Positions 18,312-39,358 of a DNA stretch of 64,000 nt are shown piece after piece. Within the stretch, counting starts at the first letter, position 1. Every line of letters begins with the position of its first letter. Origin of the DNA: an uncultured Ktedonobacterales bacterium (GTDB taxonomy: Bacteria; Chloroflexota; Ktedonobacteria; Ktedonobacterales; JADMIN01); NCBI GenBank assembly GCA_964427535.1, contig CAYRVF010000006.1, positions 3,945 to 67,944 of the forward strand, written 5' to 3'. Both the position numbers and the translations under genes were made by a program. Under the pieces are notes generated by a model, which did no database searches, was not told the DNA's origin, and saw nothing but the letters and a program-made list of their open reading frames with translations.

Positions 18312-18869
18312 TCACTGCGGCAGAGCCTCGCGCACGGTGCCCGCTTCGAGATCGAAGTAATGGCGCCGTATCAGCATCGGATTCTTGCCAAAGAGCACCA
18401 GCTCCTTCGCTGTGCCACCCATCCCTTGCTGCGAGTGGATGTCGTGGGGCGGCGCCATCCATACCACGTAGTCGCCTACCCCAAGCTCGCGCTCATACAG
18501 GAGGCGCAGACGCGCATGGCCGGGATTATCGCCCGCATCCATGCGCTCCCACTGCATGTAGCGATCATGGCCCGCCACTACACAGGCGATCCCCCACGAA
18601 TCGTGGTCGTGAACGGGCGTAGGCGCGGCGGCGGGGAACTCGGCCAGCATCAGTGTGAGCGCAGCGTCGCCGAGGGACGCCACGATCGTCGACGTGGCCG
18701 CGCTGTCGTGCATCGGCCTCATCTTGTCGTCAAAGATGAGGCCCGGCTCCCGCACCAGCTCCGCCAGGCGCTCACCCACCTGCCGCACGCTCGGCTCGGT
18801 CACACCCTCGCGGGCGAGAAAGGTCTGCGTCTCCCGCATGAAGCGGGTGATAGCCTCGTGCGTCGACAT
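18312..18869 (-). CDS. cupin-fold thiol dioxygenase-like protein (cysteine dioxygenase type I family-like)
   Basis: Same frame as ORF 18312..18983. Start ATG 18869 has GGAAGGAG upstream. Metal-binding-like PTPVHDHDSWGIACVVAGH ... PPHDIHS pattern. Last gene of the sulfur operon. Confidence 0.65.
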   Translation of the reverse strand: MSTHEAITRFMRETQTFLAREGVTEPSVRQVGERLAELVREPGLIFDDKMRPMHDSAATSTIVASLGDAALTLMLAEFPAAAPTPVHDHDSWGIACVVAGHDRYMQWERMDAGDNPGHARLRLLYERELGVGDYVVWMAPPHDIHSQQGMGGTAKELVLFGKNPMLIRRHYFDLEAGTVREALPQ

Positions 18870-18939
18870 CTCGATCTCCTTCCTTGCCATGACCTCCGCG
18901 ACATGTCGCATGGCTCCCCGTCTGCCTGTCACACGACCG

Positions 18940-20052
18940 TCACACGACCGACACGCACACGGTCTGAATGGCGTTATTGGCATAGCCGAGGCGGTTCCAC
19001 ACTGATTCGGCAGGCTGGGCGTTCCCGGCCTCGTCGAATGCCCGGCTGCGCAACGTCACCTCGCCGGGACGCTCGGGGTGCCAGACGTACTGCCACGACC
19101 TCCATGCGTAGCGAGACGGCTCGCTGGTCCAGTCGGCGAGCCACCACCTCGCGCCGCCGTCGACGCTGACCTCAACTCGGCGTACCGGTGCCATACCCGA
19201 CCAGGCCAGCCCACGCAGCACATGGCGCCCGCGCGCCAGAGTGGCACCGGCCTCCGGTGTCGTGATGACCGAGCGCACGGCGATCCTCGTGAGCGGCGTG
19301 GCGCCAGACGCGCCGCCCTCCGGATGCACCAGAATGTAGCGCTCGACCTGATAGAATCCACGGAAGCGCTGCGCGATCGCCGCGATGCGCACCACCCACT
19401 TCACCGCTGCTACCCCATACCAGCCGGGGACGACGAGGCGCACTGGGAAGCCGTGCTCCGGCGGCAGCGGTTCGCCGTTCATCACATATGCCAGCAGCGT
19501 ATCGGGGTGGAGGGCCTGCTCACGCGGCAGGCAGCGAGCGAAGGGAATCACCCCGTCCGCCGCGGCTACGTAGCCGTGATCGGCGCCCTCGACGACGATC
19601 TCGCGCGCCTCGGGCGACATGCCCGCCGCCTTCAGCACAGTCCGCAGGGGCACGCCGGTCCACTCCGCCGTGCTTGCCGCGCCATATCCCCACTGCTCGC
19701 CCTCGGCCCGTGGCCGCATCGCCGCGCGACCGTTGCCCGCGCACTCCAGCGTGACCCGCAGCGTGCGGCTCGGCAGCGCGCACAGCTCCTCATACGTCAG
19801 CTCCACCGGCGCCGCGACCTCGCCAGTGACCGCCAGGCGCCACTCCGCGGCCACACAGGTCGGCACGGCGAAGTGGTTGCGGACGTAGAATGCCGCGTTG
19901 GGTGTGACCACCCCCACGTGGCGCGCCAGCAGAGTCTCGGCGTTAAACGGTACCTCGCTGACGGCGGCGAGGCGCGGATCGTGAGCGGCGCCCAGCGCGA
20001 CCGCGCTGCCGCCGGATTGTGCGGACCGAGTCACCTCGTGATCGGTGGCCAT
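18940..20052 (-). CDS. sulfite oxidase-like molybdopterin oxidoreductase (Moco-binding plus dimerisation domains)
   Basis: ORF 18940..20052. FYVRNHF, the molybdenum-ligand cysteine context VTLECAGNGR, WTGVPL, and a C-terminal Mo-co dimerisation-like domain (VEVSVDGGARWWLA). No signal or Tat peptide. Confidence 0.88.
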   Translation of the reverse strand: MATDHEVTRSAQSGGSAVALGAAHDPRLAAVSEVPFNAETLLARHVGVVTPNAAFYVRNHFAVPTCVAAEWRLAVTGEVAAPVELTYEELCALPSRTLRVTLECAGNGRAAMRPRAEGEQWGYGAASTAEWTGVPLRTVLKAAGMSPEAREIVVEGADHGYVAAADGVIPFARCLPREQALHPDTLLAYVMNGEPLPPEHGFPVRLVVPGWYGVAAVKWVVRIAAIAQRFRGFYQVERYILVHPEGGASGATPLTRIAVRSVITTPEAGATLARGRHVLRGLAWSGMAPVRRVEVSVDGGARWWLADWTSEPSRYAWRSWQYVWHPERPGEVTLRSRAFDEAGNAQPAESVWNRLGYANNAIQTVCVSVV

Positions 20053-20062
20053 GGGACCCTCC

Positions 20063-21127
20063 TCACGCGCCCGGCGTGTGGCGCCCAGCCATCACGGCGG
20101 CCCTCTGCCAGGCCTCGGTGCCACCGCGCACGTTCATGACCTGCTCAAAGCCCACCTGCCGGAGGAACTGCGCCGCGCGCTGCGAGCGTGCGCCACTGCG
20201 GCACACGAGCAGCAGCGGACGGTCACGCGGCACTTCGTCCAGGCGCGCGGCAAGCTCGGCCTGCGGCAGATTGACCGCGCCGGGCACGTGTCCACCGGCG
20301 TATTCCTCCGGCTCGCGGACGTCCAGCACGAGCGCGTCCGGGGCCTGGCGTTCCAAATCGACGACATCCACCTGTGGCACGTCCGGGGCATCGGTGAGCA
20401 TCGCCCACGACATAGCGGCCATGCCGCGATTCGTCGCTTCGATAGCCATCATGTTCAGCGGCCGCGGGGGCACGCTGGACGTCAGGTCGGAGATGAACGC
20501 GGCACGGTCAAGCCGCGCCAGCGGATTGCAGAGGCGCTCGTAGCCGACCGTCGTGACGGGCTGGCCCGACATGCTCCTGCCGCACGGCCCCTCGAAGTGG
20601 CCAGGAAAGACCGCCACCCACTCCGGCAGCGCGAGCAGGCGCTGGATACTCTCGTATTGCGCCTCGGCGTCGCCGCCACCGAAGTCCGGGCGCCCCACAT
20701 CACCGGCCAGCAACGCATCGGCCGTCAGCGCCATCGCTGGCTCCGAATTACGCGGCGGGTTGACGAGCAGGATCGAGATCAACTCGGGGCGGTGACCCGG
20801 CGTGTGCAGCACGCGCAGGCGCAACTGCCCGAGCTCGAACTCCTGGCCGTCGTGCAGCGGCGTGAAGGGGTAGCTCGTACGCGCCGTCTCGTGAAGGCAC
20901 AGCTCCGCGCCAGACTGGGCCGCAAGCTGGCGCGCGCCCGAGACATGATCGGCGTGGATGTGCGTGTCGATCACGTAGCGCAACCGATAGCCGCGCAGGC
21001 GCAGCACCGACTCGTACTGCTCCGTCTCGAGCGCGGGGTCGACGATGACCGCTTCGAACGAGCGACGAGACGCGATGAGGTACGACGCGCAGCCGTGGAG
21101 CTGATTCAGAAACTGCTGGAAATACAT
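20063..21127 (-). CDS. persulfide dioxygenase (ETHE1-like MBL fold) fused to a rhodanese domain
   Basis: ORF 20063..21127. MBL motif VIDTHIHADHVSGA. C-terminal rhodanese with active-site loop VCRSGARS. Confidence 0.88.
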   Translation of the reverse strand: MYFQQFLNQLHGCASYLIASRRSFEAVIVDPALETEQYESVLRLRGYRLRYVIDTHIHADHVSGARQLAAQSGAELCLHETARTSYPFTPLHDGQEFELGQLRLRVLHTPGHRPELISILLVNPPRNSEPAMALTADALLAGDVGRPDFGGGDAEAQYESIQRLLALPEWVAVFPGHFEGPCGRSMSGQPVTTVGYERLCNPLARLDRAAFISDLTSSVPPRPLNMMAIEATNRGMAAMSWAMLTDAPDVPQVDVVDLERQAPDALVLDVREPEEYAGGHVPGAVNLPQAELAARLDEVPRDRPLLLVCRSGARSQRAAQFLRQVGFEQVMNVRGGTEAWQRAAVMAGRHTPGA

Positions 21128-21160: not shown

Positions 21161-22036
21161 CTAGGCGCGCACTTGGGCGGGCACACCAGCCTCGATCGGG
21201 GAGCCCACCAGGCTGCCCCACTCCGTCCACGAGCCGTCGTAGTTGCGGACATCCGGATAGCCCAGCAACTCATGCAGCACGACCCAGGTGTGCGCACTCC
21301 GCTCGCCGATGCGGCAGTACGCGATCACCGCTTTCTCCGGCGTGACCCCCTTCCCGCCATAGATCATCCGCAGCTCGTCTGCTGACTTGAACGTGCCGTC
21401 CTCGGCCACGGCCGTCGCCCAGGGGATGTTCTGCGCGCTGGGGATGTGCCCGCCGCGCTGGGCGCCCTCCTGCGGCAGGTTGGCCGGCGCCAGCAGCTCA
21501 CCACTGTACTCGTCGGGGCTGCGCACATCGACCAGCGCGGTGGAAGGGGCGGAGAGCGCCGCGCGCACCTCGTCGCGCAGGGCGCGCAGGTCCGTGTCCA
21601 TCCGCCGCACCCGGTAGACAGTCGCCGGAATGCCCGGCGACTCGACAGTCAGCGCGCGGCCCTCGTCCATCCACTTCTTGCGCCCGCCGTTCATCAGCCG
21701 CACGTCGTTGTGCCCATAGAGTTTGAAGAGCCAGTAGGCGAAGGCCGCGAACCAGTTGTTGTTGTCACCGTAGAGCACGACGGTGGTGTCGTTGGCGATG
21801 CCAGAACGTCCGAGCAGCGCCTCCCAGTCGTCGGGCGTCGGGATGTTGCGCTCGGGGTGCCGCTGGAGATCGCGTTTCCAGTTCCACCCGACGGCGCCCG
21901 GAATGTGGCCGCCGTCGTAAGCCGACGTATCCACGTCCACCTCGACCAGCCGCATCGTCGGGTCATCGAGTCGCCCGGCCACCTCGCGTGTCGCGATCAG
22001 CGCATCCATCCTGACGTCGCCACCAGACTTCGTCAT
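21161..22036 (-). CDS. sseA: thiosulfate/3-mercaptopyruvate sulfurtransferase (tandem rhodanese, SseA-like)
   Basis: Same frame as ORF 21161..22285. Start ATG 22036 has GGAAGGAGG upstream. Two rhodanese domains; active-site loop YCRIGERS. Confidence 0.88.
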   Translation of the reverse strand: MTKSGGDVRMDALIATREVAGRLDDPTMRLVEVDVDTSAYDGGHIPGAVGWNWKRDLQRHPERNIPTPDDWEALLGRSGIANDTTVVLYGDNNNWFAAFAYWLFKLYGHNDVRLMNGGRKKWMDEGRALTVESPGIPATVYRVRRMDTDLRALRDEVRAALSAPSTALVDVRSPDEYSGELLAPANLPQEGAQRGGHIPSAQNIPWATAVAEDGTFKSADELRMIYGGKGVTPEKAVIAYCRIGERSAHTWVVLHELLGYPDVRNYDGSWTEWGSLVGSPIEAGVPAQVRA

Positions 22037-22114
22037 CGCAGTGCCTCCTTCCGCGGCCACCCAGACCGCATGTCGCCGACTCCCAGGCGCGGCCACGCCG
22101 CACCTCACGAAAGA

Positions 22115-22162
22115 AGGATAGGCGGTGCGGCTTCCCAGAAGCTTCCCAGAAGCTTCCCAGAA
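22115..22162 (-). promoter_or_regulatory. three perfect 11-nt direct repeats plus a -10-like hexamer upstream of the sulfur operon (candidate SARP box/promoter)
   Basis: Read on the minus strand: TTCTGGGAAGC x3 (22162-22130), then CGCACCGCC (9 nt), then TATCCT (22120-22115). The sseA ATG is at 22036. Confidence 0.45.
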
Positions 22163-22244
22163 ACCTCCCATGCGGTGGGGCCTGAGGGGAGCCGCGAGAC
22201 GTGAGACGACATCGAGCGGGCGGGAGGGTGCGCGCTGGCTGCCA

Positions 22245-25200
22245 TCAGGCCCGAGCGAGGGCGGCGGCGAGCGAGGGCGCGACATAGCGGGCGAGTATCA
22301 CCTCGGCCTGTCGATGCGCGTCAGTACGGTCCCGTCCGTCCTCCAGCGCGGCCAGTGCCCGCAGGGTTAGCGCCAGGTCGTAGTGGTCACCAGCCGCACC
22401 GAACAGGTCCGCGGCCTCCAGCAGGCAGCGCACGGCCTCGGCTGTCTCGTCACGCGCGGCATGGATCTGCCCGCGAACACGCGCCAGACGGGCGCGTCCG
22501 GGCCGGCTTTGCGCATAGCCGGAGAGTTGCCGCGCCCGCTCGATGCACCGCCACGCCTCGTCCGGCTCCCCGGCCATGAGGTGGAAGGTGGCCAGCGCCT
22601 CGCAGATCTCGACCTCGCAGACGGCGCACGGCGGGCAGGTGGCAGCGTGCGTTGTGGCCGCCTCGATCAGCGCCGTGGCGCCGCCCGCATTGCCCGCTTG
22701 TGAGCGGTTGCGGATGCCAGCCGCGTAGAGCTGCCGCAGACTGTGGTCGCGCAGGGAGGCCCGGCTCGCCGCCTCGATCCCTCGCTCGATGAGGCGGGCC
22801 GCAGGTGCATAGACGCCCGCTGCGGTGAGCAGCTCGACCTGCTGCGCCAGGGTGTACGCCACACCGGCCTGTGAGCCGATCTGCTCATGCAGCGCCAACG
22901 CTCGCGCGAAGTTCTCAGCGGCGGCGGCGGGGAGCCCTTGATGGAGCGCCAGGTTCCCCAATACGAAGTGGCAGACCGCCAGGCAGTGCTGGTTGCCGGC
23001 CGTCGCCGACTGCCGCGCGAGCGTTTCGATGAATCGCCGCGTGTGCTGCAGTGATTCCTCACCCTGGAACGCATGCAGGTACAGGCACAGGTGTGCATCC
23101 ACGGCCACCATAGTGTCGAGCGACCAGCCCGACGTCTGCCAACGCAGCTCGCAGCGCAGCCCCTCTTCCCAGTGGCCCAGTGGGAGGTGCGCGATCGCGA
23201 GCATCTCATAGGCCTGGCTGATCTCCGCTCGCGCGCCCACACGTTCGGCGATCACCAGCGCCCGCGAGGCATGCTGGAGCGCCATGTCATACTGGTGTCC
23301 GTACCAGGCGTAGAGGGCATCGGCGATCAGCAGCCGCGCTTCGTCGGCCGCGTCCGCTCCGCCGAGCGCGCGGGCCAGGGCCAGGTGTTCGGCCGCGACC
23401 GGCATATCCACATTCAGGATCGCGCCGACGGCGATCTTACGGTACAGGTTGAACCGACGGCCGCGCTCGAACGGCGCCTCCGCCTCCTGCCCGGCCAGGG
23501 CCTCCACTGCCTGGAGATACTGCTCGTGAGCACGTGCCACATCACCAATGGCGCGGTGGGTGTCGCCGGTGCGCTCGTGAACCTCGGCGAGCAGCGGCGC
23601 TCGATCGCGGTGCTGGCTGCGCTGCAGCAGCGCCAGCGCCTCGCCGTAGCGGCTGAGCGCGCCGTCATGGTCGTAGACCGCTTCGGCACGCGCCCCCGCC
23701 TGGAGCAGGTAGTGGACGGCGCGCCGCGTATCACCCGCTTGCCGGTAGTGGAAGGCGATGGCCTCGACCGGCGTCGACCCGGGCGCATCCGCCTGGAGTG
23801 TCTCCAGCACGCCGGCGACCACACCATGCAACATCGCCCGCCGGGCCTGCGAGAGTTGCTCATACACCGCCTCGCGCAGCAGCGGATGCGGGAAACGGAA
23901 GGTGAGACCCACCTCCGTCAGCACACCGGCGGCGAGCAATTCGTCCACCAGATCGAGCAGGGAGCCACCTTCCTCGCCACCCTTCATTCCGCGCTCAAGC
24001 AGCGACAAGGGGATATCGCGGCCGGCGACGGCGGCCAGCTGGAGCAGTTGTCCGGCGGCCGGCGAGAGCGACGCCATCCGGTGCCGGGCCAGCGCGTGCA
24101 GCGACGGCGGGATTGCTGAAGCCGTGATCGCTAGCGAGCCGGCTGGGTCGGGGTCGCCCGCGAAGCGCCAGGCGCCCTCCACCTGGACGATGCCGCCGTC
24201 GGCAGCAAGCTGGCGCGCCATCTCCCTGGCGAAGAGCGCGTTGCCTTCCGAGAGGCGATAGAGCGCGGCGGCAAGCTGAGGATTGACATCGCCAGCCCCA
24301 AGCGCCTGCGACACCAGGGCGCGGTGCTCCTCGGCGGTGAGGGCGGTCAGGTGCAGCCGCTGCAGGATCTGCACCCGCTCCAGGCTGGCGATGGTCTCGG
24401 CCAGAGCGGGCGCCGCGCCGGGCTCGTGGGGCCGCCAGCCGCCGACCAGCAGCAGGGGCAGGGTCGCCGTCTCGCGCGCGAGGTACGAGAAGAGCTTGAG
24501 CGAGCCCGCGTCAACGGCGTGCAGGTCGTCGAGGACCAGGATGATCGGCGCCGTGCGTGCCCGCGCCGCCAGGAAGCGAGCCACCCCCGCGAAGAGCGCG
24601 CGCTGGGCCGCCAGCCGGTCGGGGAGACTGACCAGCACCGACGCCGAGATCTCCGGGATGGCGACCGCCAGCTCTGCGGGGATGAGCTCCGCGCCGGTAG
24701 GGTCGTGCCAGAGGGTACCGCGCAACGCCTCGACGAACGGCATATAGGGCATCTGCCCCTCCTGCTCATGCGCGGTGCCGAAGAGGACATGCCAGTGCCG
24801 CTGCCAGCCGAGCCGCTGGATCTCCTGCGCCAGCCGCGTCTTGCCGATGCCCGCGTCCCCTTCCACCCCCAGGACCGCGCCACGTCCCCGCGCGAGACGA
24901 TCGAGGAGGGCGCCGATGACGCGCAGCTCCGTCCGGCGCCCGATCAGCGGCGGCAACATGGCGAGGTCGGTCGCGGGGCCGCTGCCGGGGAGCCCAGCGC
25001 GCTGCACTCGTTCCTCCAGAATGTCGTGATACAGCGCTGCGGTCTCGGTCGACACGTCCGTGCCCAGCTCGCGCGCCACGGCCTCCGTGCAGATGCGAAA
25101 CTGCCGCAGCGCGCGGGCGCGGCTGCCCTGCCGCGCATAGGCCAGCATCAGGCCGCGCTGTGCGTCTTCGCGTGTCGCGTCGCGGGCAACGGCCTGGCGG

Positions 25201-28408: not shown

Positions 28409-28825
28409 ATGAACACCGAGGTCCGCTTCACTGACACCTGGCGCATTGGCCTGTATGTCTTGTGTGCCATCACCGTGCTCAACTACGTCGCGCAGATTCC
28501 CTACTACATCCACTTCTACGGCGTCCACGGCGCGGCTCCGTCTCCGTTGGGGGTCGTGCTCCTGGCGCTCACGTTCCTCTTGTTTCTCGCCGGCTATGTC
28601 TTCACGCTCCAGGGTCGGCGCCTCGGCGGATGGCTGCTCCTCGGATTCCTCGTCCTCGAGTTCGCCTTCTACGTGCTGCACAACCTCTCCGGAGCGTTTC
28701 TGAAGGATCTCCCCCTGCACGATCCGCTCTTCCTGGTCGTCTCGCTGATCGGGTATCTCAACACGCTCGTGGCACTCGTGTTCGCGGTCTTGATGATTCG
28801 CGACCACAAGGTCTTCTTGCGCTAG
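28409..28825 (+). CDS. hypothetical integral membrane protein (four predicted TM helices)
   Basis: ORF 28409..28825. Four long hydrophobic stretches and normal codon bias. No family recognised. Confidence 0.6.
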   Translation: MNTEVRFTDTWRIGLYVLCAITVLNYVAQIPYYIHFYGVHGAAPSPLGVVLLALTFLLFLAGYVFTLQGRRLGGWLLLGFLVLEFAFYVLHNLSGAFLKDLPLHDPLFLVVSLIGYLNTLVALVFAVLMIRDHKVFLR

Positions 28826-30137: not shown

Positions 30138-30319
30138 CCTACGCGCTGGCCTGTAACGTGCTGCTGGAGTCGCTCGTATACAACTGTGTTCGATCGCACG
30201 TTTGCCAGGCTGACTGTCAGTCTGCTTGGCACAGTCTGTGCGCTAGCTGAACGTGCCTGTGCGTTGTGCATAGGTCGTATAGACACGAACGAGGAAGCGT
30301 TCGAGGAGGGACGGGGACA

Positions 30320-30661
30320 ATGAAGCGCGGACAGGTATTTGCTCTGGTGGCAGGTGTCGTCGTTGGTCTGGCTGGCGTCGCTCTTGGTGTGGTGCTCTCG
30401 CGGCGCGAGGGCCGTGAGGCGGCGAAGAAGGTCCTTGACCAGTATGGCCCATATGCCCAGAAGGGCGCGGATGTCGCCAAGAACGTCGCCCAGCAGGCCA
30501 GCCGCGTCAGCGGCCAGGTCGCGAAGGTCGCCGCGGACCAGTATTCGACGCAGGCCCCGCGCGCCCGCGAAGTGCTCAGCGGAGTCGTCGCGCAGGCGCC
30601 GCAGCGGATGGAGGCGATTGTCTCCGCACTGCCGGGCCGCAACGGCAAGGCCGAGGCATAG
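30320..30661 (+). CDS. small membrane-anchored helical protein (YtxH-like, tentative)
   Basis: In frame with ORF 30266..30661. ATG 30320 is preceded by GAGGAGG. One N-terminal TM (FALVAGVVVGLAGVALGVVL), then an Ala/Lys/Gln-rich helical region. Confidence 0.5.
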   Translation: MKRGQVFALVAGVVVGLAGVALGVVLSRREGREAAKKVLDQYGPYAQKGADVAKNVAQQASRVSGQVAKVAADQYSTQAPRAREVLSGVVAQAPQRMEAIVSALPGRNGKAEA

Positions 30662-30855: not shown

Positions 30856-31662
30856 TCAATCCCTCTCAGGCGGCATCAGCGCGAGTTGGCGCGACTGCGC
30901 GAGGAGCACGCCATTGCGGCTCCAGATCTCGCCATCCTCTTCGAAGAAGCCGTTGCGAGCCAGCCGCGAGGAGAAGACGCCGAGGTAGTAGTCGTCGGGC
31001 CGGGCGTTCGGCAGCGGCAGGTCGGCGCGGAAGTGAATGGTCAGGTCGATGGTCGGCACACCAGCGGGTCCGGTCAGCCGGGGAAAGATGGATGGCACCC
31101 AGGCATCAGTGAAGGCCGCCACCGCGATCGCGTCCGCTACACGTGGCTCGGCGAGGCGCATCCAGCCACCGGCACGCGCATGCTCCGAGCCTGAGAACGG
31201 CATATCGCCCAGCGCCCAGTGATTATCATAGTTTCCCGCGAACGCCGGCGCCTCCGCGAACCGCTCGCCCCGTGTGGCATCTGGTGGCGGGGTCACGTTT
31301 GGCATCCGCAGTTCAGAGAGCTCGACGCTGCGGCGGGGCGTGGCGAAGGCCCCAGCCGCCAGAACGCAGGTGTATCCGTTTTGGAGCAGACGCGCCGAGA
31401 CCGTCGCGAAGCTGCGTCCCGCGCGCTCGACGACGACTCTAGCGGTATATGGCCCGGCATCGAGCGGCTCCAGGTAGTGGAGCGTCAGCGAGCGCGGATG
31501 ACGCGTGGGATCGTCGAGCGCCAGCAGCATCGCGCGCAGCGTGACGGCCGCCAGATAGCCACCGTTCACACCACGTCCGACACGCCAGCCCTCTGGAGCC
31601 TCGCCCATATACTGGCCGTTCCCTACCTGGGTCAGGGCGGTGTCGTCGTCAAACCGCGTCAT
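30856..31662 (-). CDS. acyl-CoA thioesterase II-like (double hotdog) thioesterase family protein
   Basis: Same frame as ORF 30856..31968. Start ATG 31662 has AGGAGG upstream. GRGVNGGYLAAVTLRAM...HPRSLTLHYL...TIDLTIHF pattern of TesB-like thioesterases. Confidence 0.78.
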   Translation of the reverse strand: MTRFDDDTALTQVGNGQYMGEAPEGWRVGRGVNGGYLAAVTLRAMLLALDDPTRHPRSLTLHYLEPLDAGPYTARVVVERAGRSFATVSARLLQNGYTCVLAAGAFATPRRSVELSELRMPNVTPPPDATRGERFAEAPAFAGNYDNHWALGDMPFSGSEHARAGGWMRLAEPRVADAIAVAAFTDAWVPSIFPRLTGPAGVPTIDLTIHFRADLPLPNARPDDYYLGVFSSRLARNGFFEEDGEIWSRNGVLLAQSRQLALMPPERD

Positions 31663-31934
31663 GTCGTCGCGTCCTCCTGCTCGGGGCTCTCGCGGAGCGT
31701 GGTCGTCGCCGTCCGCTGCCAGTGTACCCCATGTGTGCCACCTGAGAGGCCGTCGCCAGCTACACGCTCTCGGTCGCGATGGTGTGGCATTTTGACGCCC
31801 GCCCGGCACGCGCCGTAGAATGCTAGACGGGACGGGCCAGACAAGTGTAGCGAGACGAGACAGCACGGCGAGCGCGGGATGGTCGGCGAGACACGCGACC
31901 GGGCGCGGACGTGCTGAGCGAAGGCGGAATCGGA

Positions 31935-32990
31935 ATGGCTCCAGGGAGACGGGTGCGGTTGACGACACTCGCGAGTTGCGCCGGTTGAGCGTCGAAGATG
32001 GGCATCGAGACCCTGGACGCCGTGTTGCGTCCGCTCGCCGCCACCTTCACCGCCGGAGTACCCGCCGACCTGCTGGTCGGTCTGGGCAATGCCGACGACG
32101 CCGCCGTCTACCGTCTGAACGACGAGCAGGCCATCGTCGCGACCACCGATTTCTTCCCGCCGGTGGTTGACGATCCCTACTCCTTTGGTGCGATCGCGGC
32201 CGCCAACGCGCTGAGCGACATCTACGCGATGGGCGGCGATCCGCTGTTCTGCCTGAATCTCGTCGCCTTCCCCGACGACCTCGACCCGGCCATCCTCACC
32301 GAAATCCTGCGTGGGGGCGCAGAGACTGTGCGCGCGGCGGGGGCCGTCGTGGCGGGCGGCCACTCGGTGACGGACGACGAGCCGAAATATGGGCTCGCCG
32401 CCATCGGGACGGTCCATCCGCGGCGCATCTTCACCAAGGGCGGCGCGCGGCCGGGCGACGTGCTCGTGCTGACGAAGCCGCTCGGTACGGGGGTGATCAC
32501 GACGGCGGGCAAACGCGAGACGGTCAGCGAGGAGCATCTCACCGCCGCCATCGCCAGCATGATGAACCTGAATGGTCCCGCTTCACGGGCGCTGCGGAGT
32601 CTTGGGGACGCCGTGCATGCCTGTACTGACATCACCGGATTCGGCCTGCTCGGGCACGCCTATGAGATGGCGGAGCAGAGCGGCGTGGGCATGCGCTTCA
32701 CGCTCGCGGCGATTCCCTGGCTGCCCGGTGCGCGGGCGTACGCTGAGGCGGGCGCGGTACCCGGCGGCACGGCACGCAACAGGTCAGCCGTCGAGCCGCA
32801 CGTGACGTACGGCGATGCGGTCGGCGCGGTGGACCGCCTCTTGCTCTTCGATCCTCAGACCTCCGGTGGTCTCTTCGCGGCGGTCGCGCCAGACGCGCTC
32901 GACCAGGCCCGCGCGGCCTTCGAGGCTGCGGGAGTCAGCGCAGCGGAGGTTGGCGTGGTCGTCGCGGATGGCGGCCTGCGCGTAGAGTGA
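31935..32990 (+). CDS. selD: selenide, water dikinase (selenophosphate synthetase) with in-frame UGA read as selenocysteine at 31986..31988
   Basis: ORF track gives only 31998..32990. The same frame upstream reads MAPGRRVRLTTLASCAG-[TGA]-ASKMGIETLDAVL. This matches the SelD N-terminal loop, with the stop at the Cys/Sec position and Lys at +3. An alternative start is GTG 31953 (AGGGAG 4 nt upstream). The remainder carries the AIR-synthase-like SelD body (GNADDAAVY, TTDFFPPVVDDPYSFG, AANALSDIYAMGG). Confidence 0.85.
31986..32032 (+). promoter_or_regulatory. UGA recoding site plus SECIS-like hairpin(s)
   Basis: GGACGC (32015-32020), loop CGTGTT, GCGTCC (27-32). An alternative pairing is GCGTC (31989-31993) with GACGC (32016-32020). 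Confidence 0.5.
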
Positions 32991-33733
32991 AGGACCCGAT
33001 GGCGAGAAAAGCCTCCAGCACGGACATCGACCCGGAGCGCTTCGAGCAGCTTCAGCGGGCGCTCAACCACACGTTCGCCGAGCCGGGTCTGCTCGTCGAT
33101 GCGCTCACCCACCGCTCGTATCTGAACGAGCACGGTGGCCCAGGCGTCGTCTCGAACGAGCGCCTCGAATTCCTCGGCGACGCCGTGCTGGCCCTCGTGA
33201 GCGCCGAATTGCTTTACCGCCAGTTTCCACATGCTCCGGAGGGCGAGCTGACCCAGTTGCGGGCGGCGCTAGTACGAGGTACCGCGCTGGCGGGTTTCGC
33301 GCGCCGCTATGCGCTCGGCGAGGCGGTGCGCGTGGCCCGCAGCGAGGAGCAGAAGAGCGGACGCGAGCGTGACGCGCTGCTGGCGGCGACCTTCGAGGCG
33401 GTGCTCGGCGCGCTCTATCTCGACGCCGGTTTAGAGGAGGCCCGCCGCTTCCTCACGCCGCTCCTCACGGAAGAGGCGGAGGGCGCGATCCAACAGCGGC
33501 GCGTCAAAGACGCTAAGTCGCGGCTGCAAGAGCTCGCGCAGGCGCGTCTCGGCGTGACGCCACGCTACCGCACTGTGAGCGAGTCGGGTCCGGCGCACCA
33601 GCGGACGTTTACCGTCGAGGTGGTCATCGGCGAGCTGGCACCAGCGCGTGGCGAAGGCCCGAGCAAGCAACAAGCGGAGCAGGCGGCGGCGCGCCTCGCA
33701 CTGCAAGACCAGGGCTGGCTCGACGACGAGTGA
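32987..33733 (+). CDS. rnc: ribonuclease III
   Basis: ORF 32987..33733. The GTG overlaps the selD stop as GTGA; an alternative start is ATG 32999. ALTHRSY and NERLEFLGDAVL catalytic signature, with a C-terminal dsRBD (PRYRTVSESGPAHQRTFTVEV). Confidence 0.92.
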   Translation: MKDPMARKASSTDIDPERFEQLQRALNHTFAEPGLLVDALTHRSYLNEHGGPGVVSNERLEFLGDAVLALVSAELLYRQFPHAPEGELTQLRAALVRGTALAGFARRYALGEAVRVARSEEQKSGRERDALLAATFEAVLGALYLDAGLEEARRFLTPLLTEEAEGAIQQRRVKDAKSRLQELAQARLGVTPRYRTVSESGPAHQRTFTVEVVIGELAPARGEGPSKQQAEQAAARLALQDQGWLDDE

Positions 33734-33760
33734 GCCCCGCTCCCAGAGCGCCCATGCCGC

Positions 33761-33790
33761 TTGACACTCCGCTACCCACTGGGGTACCCT
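33761..33790 (+). promoter_or_regulatory. candidate promoter of tRNA-Thr
   Basis: TTGACA (33761-33766), 18-nt spacer, TACCCT (33785-33790), about 24 nt before the tRNA 5' end. Confidence 0.3.
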
Positions 33791-33813
33791 AAATGAGGTT
33801 TGCTCCCTCATCC

Positions 33814-33885
33814 GCCAGCGTAGCTCAGGGGCAGAGCAGCTGTTTCGTAAACAGCAGGCCGTGGGTTCGAATCCCACCGCTGGCT
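33814..33885 (+). tRNA. tRNA-Thr (anticodon CGT)
   Basis: Manual cloverleaf. Acceptor GCCAGCG/CGCTGGC; D-arm GCTC-AGGGGCA-GAGC; anticodon arm GCTGT-TTCGTAA-ACAGC; variable AGGCC; T-arm GTGGG-TTCGAAT-CCCAC; discriminator T. CCA is not encoded. Confidence 0.95.
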
Positions 33886-34221
33886 CCCCAGGAATATTCG
33901 GGCTTTGTCTCCCCAGGCCCAACACATAACAGCTGCCCTACCCCTGAGCTACTTCTGTCTCCAAGGGGTATTGAAGGACAGCTATTTCATTTTAGCACGC
34001 GGTATTTGTAGCTCGCTAGCTCAGCTGTTGTGTCCTGTTGTGTCATAGGCCGTGTTGCTCACCCCGAGCACAAAGCAGACTATGCCCATCTCCTACGCCA
34101 ATCGTTCGGCAGGGCGTTCACACACAGTACAATCAGTGCATAAGTGTGCACATCATGGTTGGTAGCGCCACGTAAGGTAGTGTAAGCCCGGTGTGACGGG
34201 GCACTCTTCCGAGCAGTTTCA

Positions 34222-34244
34222 GTCGAATTCCCACCACTCGGTCC
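34222..34244 (+). other. partial copy of the tRNA-Thr 3' end (T-loop to acceptor)
   Basis: GTCGAATTCCCACCACTCGGTCC versus tRNA GTTCGAATCCCACCGCTGGCTCC: 19 of 22 aligned positions with two 1-nt indels. Same orientation, about 340 nt downstream of the tRNA. Confidence 0.5.
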
Positions 34245-34258
34245 CTTCATTCCGTCGA

Positions 34259-34288
34259 GGGCGGGTTCGACTCCCATACGCCTCTGCC
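34259..34288 (+). other. second tRNA/tmRNA-like 3'-end remnant
   Basis: GGGCGGGTTCGACTCCCATACGCCTCTGCC contains the GGTTCGACTCC T-loop consensus, but the stem no longer pairs fully. No matching 5' acceptor strand was found. Confidence 0.4.
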
Positions 34289-34314
34289 CTAGATTGTATC
34301 TGTCACGGCAGCAC

Positions 34315-34680
34315 TCACTGGAAAGCATCGTCAGTGGACACAATCGCGTACAGCAGCACCGCGCGGCGCCCGCCATGTGGTGGCGCGGGCACGCGCTCAC
34401 CTTCCCGAATGACGCCCTCCTGCAAGAGCGCTGCGGTGATTGCACCCACTGTCGTACGCGACAGGCTGGTTTGCTCAGCGAGTTTGACGCGCGAGATTGG
34501 CCCGTGCTCGCGGACACAGGTGAACACGAGTGTCCGATTGATTCGGCGTAGCCAGCGCTGGTCAACGTGATGCACAGGGCCGAGCGTGGGCGGCCACGTT
34601 GCTGTGATTTCGTCATCTGCACGCTCGCCATGCTCGGCACCTGCCGCTGTGCTCTCGCGAGCGCGCCCCGACATCGGCAT
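34315..34680 (-). pseudogene. ROK-family transcriptional regulator, truncated to its N-terminal winged-helix domain
   Basis: In frame with ORF 34315..34809. INRTLVFTCVREHGPISRVKLAEQTSLSRTTVGAITAALLQEGVIREGERVPAPPHGGRRAVLL is a ROK-repressor HTH. The ORF then ends after 11 unrelated residues, and no sugar-kinase-like domain follows in any frame. Confidence 0.6.
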
Positions 34681-34826
34681 GCTTGCATCATGGTAGTTTC
34701 GTGTGTTCCGCACCGCCAAACCTCTCTTCCGCTGTAGGCTCTGCCCCGTTTGGCAGCTTGGCACCGCCAGGCGATTGATGTCGCGCGCCGCTCCGCCCCC
34801 TGCCTGCAAGTGCGCGGTTCTAGTTC

Positions 34827-38386: not shown

Positions 38387-39358
38387 TCAGACTCCTAGCT
38401 GTCGGCGCGTGAGGCGCAGGAAGCCAAACGAGAAAATGCATGTCACGATGCCGAGGATCACGGCGATGGCTCCGCCGTAGTTGAAATCGGTGTTGACCAC
38501 CGCGACGTTATACGCGAATATATTCGGCGTGTACGAGGTCGTGATTGCTGAATTTGTCAGGTTTTTCAGGACCGTCGGCTCGTTGAACAACTGCAGGGTG
38601 CCAACAATCGAGAAGAGCATTCCGATGATGACAGCCGGCACGATCAAGGGCAGCTTGAGCCGCAGCGCGATCCCCGTTTCGGAGAGGCCGTCCAGCCGGC
38701 CAGACTCGTAGATTTCCTGGGGAATGCCCTGAAGCGCCGAATACAAGATGATCATGTTGTAGCCGGTGAATTCCCAGGTGGAGATATTCACGATGGACCA
38801 CAGTGTCTGGGATGGACCGAGAAAGGTCGGTGCCGGCAGGTGGAGGGCTGTGAATGCCTGGACGATTGGGCTGGACGTTGGACTATAGAAGAATCCCCAC
38901 ATAATGGCGGCAATCACGATAGGAACCGCATACGGAACGAAGAATGCAAGACGGAAGAAGTGCCGGAAGCGGATCACCGCCGAATCCATCAGCAGCGCCA
39001 ACACCAGTGCGACGATCATCATGATCGGGATTTGGACGGCCCCGAAGAGCAGCACTCGGCCGAATCCGCTCCAGAGGTTCGGATCATGCAGCGCGGCGAT
39101 GTAGTTCGCGGCACCTGCCCACTCAATTTGCGGCGGCCCGAACCCCAGGCCGCTACGATGTTCCGAGTAGAGACTTTGTGAGAAGGCATACAGAAGGGGC
39201 GCGACGAAAAACGCGGCGAAGAGGAGGAGAAACGGCAGCACAAACAGATAGGGAACGAGCAGGCGCGAGAACCGCCGAAATAGCATGGCCGGACCGCGCT
39301 GCCCGGCGCTCCCCGCGGATGCCATCCGCGATGCGTGAACGATCGTTTTCGGCTCCAT
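38387..39358 (-). CDS. carbohydrate ABC transporter permease (MalF-like)
   Basis: Same frame as ORF 38387..39544. ATG 39358 chosen (alternative 39325). EAA-like loop ESGRLDGLSETGIALRLKLPL. Six hydrophobic segments. Confidence 0.88.
   Translation of the reverse strand: MEPKTIVHASRMASAGSAGQRGPAMLFRRFSRLLVPYLFVLPFLLLFAAFFVAPLLYAFSQSLYSEHRSGLGFGPPQIEWAGAANYIAALHDPNLWSGFGRVLLFGAVQIPIMMIVALVLALLMDSAVIRFRHFFRLAFFVPYAVPIVIAAIMWGFFYSPTSSPIVQAFTALHLPAPTFLGPSQTLWSIVNISTWEFTGYNMIILYSALQGIPQEIYESGRLDGLSETGIALRLKLPLIVPAVIIGMLFSIVGTLQLFNEPTVLKNLTNSAITTSYTPNIFAYNVAVVNTDFNYGGAIAVILGIVTCIFSFGFLRLTRRQLGV

Follow-up and report, generated by a model that had tools for sequence, protein, structure and literature searches.

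A selenophosphate synthetase gene of a Ktedonobacterales bacterium with an in-frame UGA predicted to encode selenocysteine

The 64-kb stretch of Ktedonobacterales DNA analysed here (the window) contains a selD gene that is very probably an ordinary gene of the selenocysteine (Sec) type, in which an in-frame UGA would be decoded by standard SelB- and SECIS-dependent Sec insertion. We propose that translation initiates at ATG 31935, that Sec is inserted as residue 18 and that reading goes on as far as the stop codon TGA 32988. The predicted product is a 351-residue selenophosphate synthetase that would make selenophosphate from selenide and ATP. Sec18 and Lys21 would lie in the selenium-binding loop of the N-terminus, which is flexible and rich in glycine, and the ATP/metal motifs of the predicted enzyme appear intact. 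The selenophosphate formed would supply SelA with selenium, and by this route every selenoprotein, SelD included. This is the known 'bootstrapping': the selenium donor on which the synthesis of a selenoprotein depends is made by that selenoprotein. Both the insertion of Sec at the UGA and the binding of SelB are inferred from sequence. Three other explanations, namely a truncated gene or pseudogene, read-through that does not insert Sec, and a sequencing or assembly error, share between them a small remainder of the probability.

Gene model and identity of the encoded protein

The gene and its start region comprise the following features.

31935..32990, + strand: full selD coding sequence, selenide, water dikinase (selenophosphate synthetase), 351 codons including Sec18, stop TGA 32988-32990
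31920..31928, + strand: Shine-Dalgarno-like purine run GAAGGCGGA, read from the sequence and of putative function, with the start codon 6 nt further on
31974..31997, + strand: N-terminal catalytic loop S14-C15-A16-G17-U18-A19-S20-K21, from alignment with E. coli HGAGCGCK and A. aeolicus SSGCAAK
31986..31988, + strand: in-frame UGA, predicted Sec codon (codon 18, Sec18); the same column is TGA in 37 of 80 loci and also in L083-L086
31998..32000, + strand: Met22, the false start chosen by ORF callers, from the mechanical ORF list

Reading the DNA from 31700 to 33200 in the frame of selD gave MAPGRRVRLTTLASCAG-TGA(31986-31988)-ASK-M(31998) for the upstream part, with an ATG at 31935 and a GTG at 31953. 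The joined frame translates as ...GGIG-M(31935)APGRRVRLTTLASCAG-TGA(31986-31988)-ASK-M(31998)GIETLDAVLRPL... and terminates at TGA 32988-32990. The mechanical ORF list begins selD at Met 31998 and returns 330 aa, which is 21 residues short. An earlier note on this DNA, made from the letters and an ORF list, had reported the ATG, the GTG, the frame, the TGA and the letters of two downstream hairpins, and all of these are found where it had placed them.

The joined 351-residue protein, scored against NCBIfam with U replaced by C, reached 393.1 bits for TIGR00476 (the selD equivalog; cutoff 125) over residues 8-321 and from model position 1, and 356.5 bits for NF002098 (cutoff 299). Its best match among solved structures was E. 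coli SelD 3u0o (E = 7e-75, residues 6-347), on whose RLTQYSHGAG-C17-GCK the window's RLTTLASCAG-UGA-ASK aligns, with the Lys at +3 corresponding to E. coli Lys20. Both of these E. coli residues, Cys17 and Lys20, are essential for activity. The second structure match was Aquifex aeolicus SelD (2yye), which has its SSG-C-AAK, the natural Sec site, in the column of the UGA. The earlier proposal that the stop occupies the Cys17/Sec position, with a Lys at +3, is thus borne out by the alignment to both enzymes.

The motifs DDAAVY (54), TTDFF (70), NALSDIYAMGG (91) and TDITGFGLLGH (231) are likewise present and aligned with E. coli. From the E. coli and Aquifex structures, we take these motifs (the third as SDIYAMGG) to hold the ATP/metal-binding and catalytic aspartates. 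Close relatives of the protein carry PF00586 and PF02769 (PurM-like AIRS and AIRS_C). Since the SelD matches are full length and the ATP/metal motifs are present, the gene looks intact apart from the UGA.

Conservation of the UGA and of the codons before it

For comparison, 80 related loci were taken from a scan of one genome per species, and each was read in frame upstream of its match. Aligning the extended N-terminus with Cys- and Sec-type SelD, as the earlier note had proposed, brought 37 TGA codons and 42 Cys codons (TGC/TGT) into one column across the 80 loci; the remaining locus, L033, stops short of the site. TGA occupies this column in every Chloroflexota locus among the 80, covering Ktedonobacterales, Anaerolineae, Caldilineaceae, Thermomicrobiales/Sphaerobacter, Chloroflexia, Dehalococcoidia and Thermoflexales, and it recurs outside the phylum in Tissierella, Anaeromonas, Syntrophomonas, Desulfatiglans and others. 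The Cys-type loci belong to Burkholderiaceae (GGG-C-GCK) and others. The catalytic-loop motif is kept in all Sec-type and Cys-type relatives. Neither TAA nor TAG was found at this column in any of the 80 loci. TGA also serves as an ordinary stop in this DNA, in selD itself, in rnc and in many high-GC3 ORFs, so that a reassigned genetic code does not explain the in-frame TGA. By its position on E. coli Cys17 and the A. aeolicus Sec site, by the fit of the N-terminal extension to the selD model and by its recurrence in these loci, the placement of the UGA is more than chance.

The closest relatives among the 80, L001 and L002, come from Ktedonobacterales metagenome-assembled genomes; they show 73% identity, a MAPGRK start and the same selD-rnc-tRNA-Thr(CGU) order. 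A MAPGR(R/K) start is common to the window, L001, L002 and a further relative, L084. When the codons before the TGA were compared (12 codons), synonymous changes exceeded non-synonymous ones by 8:1 in L001, 7:2 in L002 and 6:1 in L084, a pattern that indicates purifying selection on this upstream stretch. The 5' UTRs upstream of the ATG permitted no alignment between the window and L001, L002 and L084. Purine runs comparable to that of the window (GCAGGAGA, AAAGGTGGG) lie at a similar distance, 5-8 nt before the ATG, in Ktedonobacterales relatives. The mostly synonymous change before the TGA, the unalignable 5' UTRs and the Shine-Dalgarno-like runs together argue that the N-terminal peptide is translated and that its start is ATG 31935.

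These observations bear on the possibility that the TGA is a genuine stop, leaving either a pseudogene or a truncated SelD-like protein that begins at Met 31998 without the Sec/Cys-Lys loop. ORF callers and most database entries do use this start, and in many relatives, as in the window, an ATG lies three codons past the TGA. In a protein-collection search, the relatives were accordingly mostly 329-330 aa long and covered 94% of the query, which is the same truncated ORF call. We nevertheless regard a genuine stop as very unlikely. The 17 upstream codons are conserved as protein, their peptide fits the SelD model from its first position, and the TGA is kept at a single column in 37 diverse loci where no other stop codon occurs. 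The loop that would be deleted holds the residues aligned with E. coli Cys17 and Lys20, and Met 31998 lacks a Shine-Dalgarno-like element, the preceding sequence being GGTTGAGCGTCGAAG. The earlier suspicion that an ORF caller truncates selD at Met 31998 is upheld by the full-length TIGR00476 match, the conserved TGA and the purifying selection upstream of it.

The downstream hairpin and the Sec-decoding machinery

Two mutually exclusive pairings follow the UGA.

32006..32037, + strand: predicted bacterial SECIS hairpin, present in the minimum-free-energy (MFE) fold and within the bSECIS limits given below; putative function
31989..32020, + strand: alternative hairpin of GCGUC 31989-31993 with GACGC 32016-32020, present as complementarity and rejected as functional

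The MFE fold of 31986-32050 forms a lower stem of 4 bp (32006-32009/32034-32037), a 4-nt bulge and an upper stem of 7 bp (32014-32020/32027-32033). The complementarity of GGACGC (32015-32020) and GCGTCC (32027-32032) around CGTGTT is present, and a U32014-G33 wobble lengthens the stem. The apical loop CGUGUU (32021-32026) starts 32 nt past the A of the UGA. Published bSECIS criteria ask for a loop of 3-9 nt, an upper stem of 4-16 bp, a G in the first two loop positions, a distance of 16-37 nt from the UGA and an energy of <= -7.5 kcal/mol (PMC13188914, Fig. 2). We applied these strictly, requiring a contiguous stem, and the window falls within every limit, with a loop of 6 nt, a stem of 7 bp, G and U at loop positions 2-3, a spacing of 32 nt and -10.0 kcal/mol. 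This agrees with the earlier description of an apical loop with G/U about 30 nt after the UGA, as in a bacterial SECIS.

Considered alone, the window hairpin is only weakly beyond chance and its stability is unremarkable: in this 66% GC DNA its energy gives z = -0.96 against dinucleotide shuffles and -0.82 against synonymous-codon shuffles. Sec-type and Cys-type genes could not be told apart by best-hairpin energy (p = 0.21), in a test whose Cys-type set consists largely of very GC-rich Burkholderiaceae, and the Cys-type Ktedonobacterales fold equally strongly (-31 kcal/mol over 66 nt) via different pairings. When each gene was set against its own synonymous shuffles, the Sec-type genes proved the more structured, with a mean z of -1.02 as against -0.31 for the Cys-type (p = 0.003). 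The bSECIS limits are also passed by 4.5% of synonymous shuffles and by 4.0% of the window's 1460 TGA triplets, and because of this background of about 4% a pass is not decisive alone. With an unremarkable energy and about 4% of random TGAs passing, the case rests on comparative evidence.

This evidence is of two kinds. The first is the distribution of the element between the two classes of gene, in a comparison not corrected for phylogeny and in which many Cys-type loci are closely related Burkholderiaceae: 25 of 39 Sec-type and 2 of 44 Cys-type loci pass the bSECIS limits (Fisher p = 3e-9), and GU stands at columns 37-38 in 36 of 39 Sec-type and 5 of 44 Cys-type loci (p = 1e-14). The second is covariation. 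In an ungapped alignment of 38 Sec-type sequences, 78.6% of cells in hairpin columns 30-36/40-46 are paired, versus 28-55% after sliding the partner by 1-3 columns. Of the seven hairpin pairs, six are altered on both sides in these sequences, and the covariation score was reached by none of 500 shuffles. Compensated stems in relatives include GGCGCA/UGCGCC, GCUGCA/UGCAGC, GGCCCA/UGGGCC and UUGCUCA/UGAGCAA. In the window and in L058, the equivalent stem is shifted by one nucleotide in register relative to the closest relatives, and the shift accompanies Asp-Ala (or Ala-Ala) where relatives show Ala-His or Ala-Gln.

RNAalifold found no consensus structure in the 38-sequence alignment, probably because two pairing registers coexist. 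Rfam, run over the whole window at the gathering threshold and in sensitive mode over 31600-32150, matched no SECIS or tRNA-Sec family; its only match was a chance mir-638 (E = 7.3). Of the two mutually exclusive hairpins in the earlier note, the one at 32014-32033 stands, by its pairing and its place within the bSECIS limits. The other, 31989-31993/32016-32020, does not: 33.2% of its cells are paired in the 38 Sec-type sequences, against 26-66% in slid controls, and it is not conserved. Once compared with its orthologues, the retained hairpin makes a convincing candidate SECIS.

The Sec-decoding genes themselves were sought in the window and around the related loci. ARAGORN and Rfam found no tRNA-Sec in the 64-kb window, whose single tRNA is tRNA-Thr(CGU) at 33814-33887; across the 37 Sec-type loci, ARAGORN found tRNA-Sec solely in L040, a Firmicute in which selD, selA, selB and tRNA-Sec form one cluster. 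Searched by tblastn, SelA and SelB of L040 matched neither the window nor the 10-kb regions flanking selD in any Chloroflexota locus, their matches being confined to Firmicutes, Burkholderiaceae and Dokdonella loci. With neither SelA nor SelB nor tRNA-Sec beside its selD loci, selD thus appears to be unlinked from the other sel genes in Chloroflexota. Pfam annotation of about 39 window ORFs revealed no SelA or SelB and recognised no typical selenoprotein family (FdhA, GrdA/B). Further UGA-interrupted genes were not found in the window, either by this annotation or by a GC3-based screen, which is insensitive and missed selD itself. The GC3 screen gave a single candidate, at the edge of the window (390, - strand), which resembles read-through of non-coding sequence. 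The window ORFs are a mixed set, with a PEP carboxylase, sensor kinases, transporters, a Ser/Thr kinase, an acyl-CoA thioesterase, RNase III, a sugar ABC system and a GH1 glycosidase.

The Sec machinery is documented for relatives. Ktedonobacter racemifer is SelD+ SelA+ SelB+ and YbbB- YqeB- YqeC-, with 5 selenoproteins, and the cultured Chloroflexi with SelD are mostly SelA+ SelB+ (Peng et al. 2016, Tables S1, S2). By analogy with K. racemifer, it is reasonable to suppose that selA, selB and selC lie elsewhere in this genome.

An alternative in which the UGA is read through other than as Sec, by near-cognate Trp or Cys decoding or by a suppressor tRNA, with a hairpin that slows the ribosome or is incidental, would fit the lack of visible Sec machinery within the window and a hairpin stability that is unexceptional for the GC content. 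We consider it highly improbable, as homologues carry either Sec or Cys at precisely the recoded position, and the loop G-U is kept in Sec-type genes and lost in Cys-type genes, those of the Cys-type Ktedonobacterales included. The records of SelA and SelB in Ktedonobacter and in most cultured Chloroflexi with SelD, together with the complete cluster in the Sec-type relative L040, also speak against it and for decoding as Sec.

Cys-type relatives, known systems and meaning

Some Ktedonobacterales encode SelD with Cys at the critical position. In the protein collection, the 350-aa relatives with 100% coverage are genuine Cys-type enzymes of other Ktedonobacterales (SCAG-C-AAKMGADALANAL), and TGC was confirmed at the critical codon in the DNA of two of them (L081, L082). 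These enzymes (P0009, P0010, P0013, P0015; L081, L082) resemble that of the window in their identity of about 70%, their SCAG-x-AAK loop and their selD-rnc neighbourhood. They differ from it in the TGC codon and in an Ala that replaces the Val at the loop G-U (ANAL instead of AHVL/DAVL). Since the GUN codon of this Val supplies the loop G-U, the canonical apical loop is lost in the Cys-type Ktedonobacterales, as would be expected after the SECIS constraint had been lifted. A similar pattern has been described for SelD and hydrogenases (PMC13582414).

With Cys-type SelD bearing the SCAG-C-AAK motif in other Ktedonobacterales, and a single base change interconverting the two forms, the TGA could in principle reflect a fault in sequencing or assembly, or else a nonsense mutation of a Cys codon (TGC/TGT to TGA) peculiar to this strain. 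We give this idea a negligible probability. The closest relatives all have the TGA and the conserved hairpin, and L083 (Logan SRR31070047), an independently assembled, 99%-identical strain, has the same 200 nt over the length compared, TGA included, which excludes a sequencing error.

The arrangement that we favour, a Sec-type SelD, is well known, common and already described. Among bacterial selenoproteins, SelD forms the second largest family (Zhang et al. 2006; Peng et al. 2016; PMC13188914); its Sec type made up 38 of 285 bacterial selenoproteins in one survey (Zhang et al. 2006), and another counted 383 organisms in which SelD is a selenoprotein (Peng et al. 2016, Table S3), in keeping with the earlier view that the recoding is of a known kind and the family not new. 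The A. aeolicus enzyme (PDB 2yye/2zod, crystallised as a Sec-to-Cys variant) belongs to the same TIGR00476 family and the same AIRS/AIRS_C fold families as that of the window. The two also share a UGA at the same catalytic position, a glycine-rich loop with a Lys three residues on and, within the coding region, a stem-loop some 30 nt past the UGA. Haemophilus influenzae SelD also contains Sec. The Cys-type SelD of E. coli (3u0o) shares the ATP/metal motifs and the length and register of the N-terminal loop with the window, and its selD needs no recoding because Cys17 stands where the window has UGA.

The SelD of the window nonetheless has traits of its own. It shows at most 73% identity to relatives in the genome collection and far lower identity to the solved structures, and its selD is not clustered with selA or selB. 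A Cys lies three residues before the Sec (C-A-G-U), whereas E. coli has its second Cys two residues after the catalytic one and Aquifex has no second Cys. The hairpin shares with the bSECIS consensus (the bSECISearch model, with E. coli fdhF as prototype; PMC13188914, Fig. 2) its location within the coding sequence right after the UGA, but shows no primary-sequence resemblance to the fdhF element.

Two of these traits invite a joint reading, which we put forward tentatively and with considerable doubt. The register-shifted hairpin, created by the coupled replacement of Ala-His/Gln by Asp-Ala at residues 11-12 after the Sec, might preserve SECIS function, and Cys15 and Sec18 might form a Chloroflexota C-x-x-U redox pair, as against the C17-x-C19 of E. 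coli. If the first part were true, protein sequence would here have been bent to preserve RNA structure. If the joint reading held, and given that Sec- and Cys-type SelD co-occur in Ktedonobacterales, this clade would offer a natural setting in which to study recent Sec/Cys switching in SelD.

The gene leaves knowledge of selenium biology unchanged. What changes is its annotation: the coding sequence would be 31935-32990 and the product a protein of 351 residues with Sec18, in place of the 330-residue ORF. Truncated public entries leave the catalytic loop missing from downstream structural and functional analysis. As selD marks its organism as a Sec user, the genome should be given a selenoprotein-aware (UGA-aware) annotation.

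A second cysteine near the catalytic position

Most Sec-type SelDs of Chloroflexota, encoded with TGA at the catalytic column, and the Cys-type SelDs of Ktedonobacterales, with a Cys codon there, carry a further cysteine at -3 from the Sec/Cys site (S-C-A-G-U/C; loci L001-L030, same column). This arrangement constitutes a CxxU/CxxC pair, which in the window is encoded as follows:

31977-31988 (+), Cys15 to predicted Sec18 of SelD

In contrast to the -3 position found in most Chloroflexota Sec-type SelDs, the second cysteine of E. coli SelD sits at +2, and Phototrophicaceae loci read GSAG-U-ASKC, which places the cysteine at +4. The cysteine near the Sec/Cys site may be a lineage-specific resolving cysteine.

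Gene order around selD

rnc may start at GTG 32987, which overlaps the selD stop codon TGA (32988-32990), or alternatively at ATG 32999. The selD-rnc order recurs across Ktedonobacterales (window, L002, L083-L086), which is suggestive of an operon. In the window, within 32987-33887, and in L002, one of its two closest relatives, tRNA-Thr(CGU) is the next gene. Synteny also extends upstream of selD to a Ser/Thr kinase gene and a small ORF, and an acyl-CoA thioesterase gene, 30856-31662 (-), separates these syntenic genes from selD in just two loci, the window and the 99%-identical L083. Three ORFs with a strong GC3 coding signal had no Pfam match: 28409-28825 (+), 18312-18983 (-) and 30266-30661 (+). 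The last, of 131 aa, lies between the kinase gene and selD, a place taken in L084-L086 by an ORF of 109 aa for which no Pfam hit is recorded.

Just downstream of tRNA-Thr, GC content falls to 0.59 (33600-34199) and, within the sugar ABC permease region, to 0.56 (38400-38999), compared to about 0.66 overall. No convincing high-GC3 ORF was found in 33900-34800, and an element that once integrated at tRNA-Thr may have left a remnant here. About 10 kb upstream of selD are two adjoining rhodanese-domain genes, 20063-21127 (-) and 21161-22285 (-); one product combines a metallo-beta-lactamase fold with a rhodanese domain, while the second matches rhodanese twice.

Hairpins at the predicted SECIS site and truncated SelD entries

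Pairing in the SECIS-like stem of the window (32014-32033) is shifted by one nucleotide relative to the closest relatives, L001 and L002 (9989+29..+46), and alongside this shift Asp-Ala replaces Ala-His or Ala-Gln. The register of the window also occurs in L058 (Thermoflexales). In some Cys-type Paraburkholderia selD genes (L048, L050, L053, L054, L060, L068), the segment from +23 to +56 relative to the Cys codon contains a highly stable hairpin (-20.7 kcal/mol). This hairpin occupies the SECIS site of Sec-type genes but does not have the G-U signature in its loop, and it may be either a fossil SECIS or a chance product of GC-rich codons for Ala, Leu and Arg.

Most public protein entries nearest to the window SelD (P0001-P0120) are 329-330 aa long, with the Met that follows the UGA as their first residue. 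These entries are systematically truncated and lack the catalytic loop.
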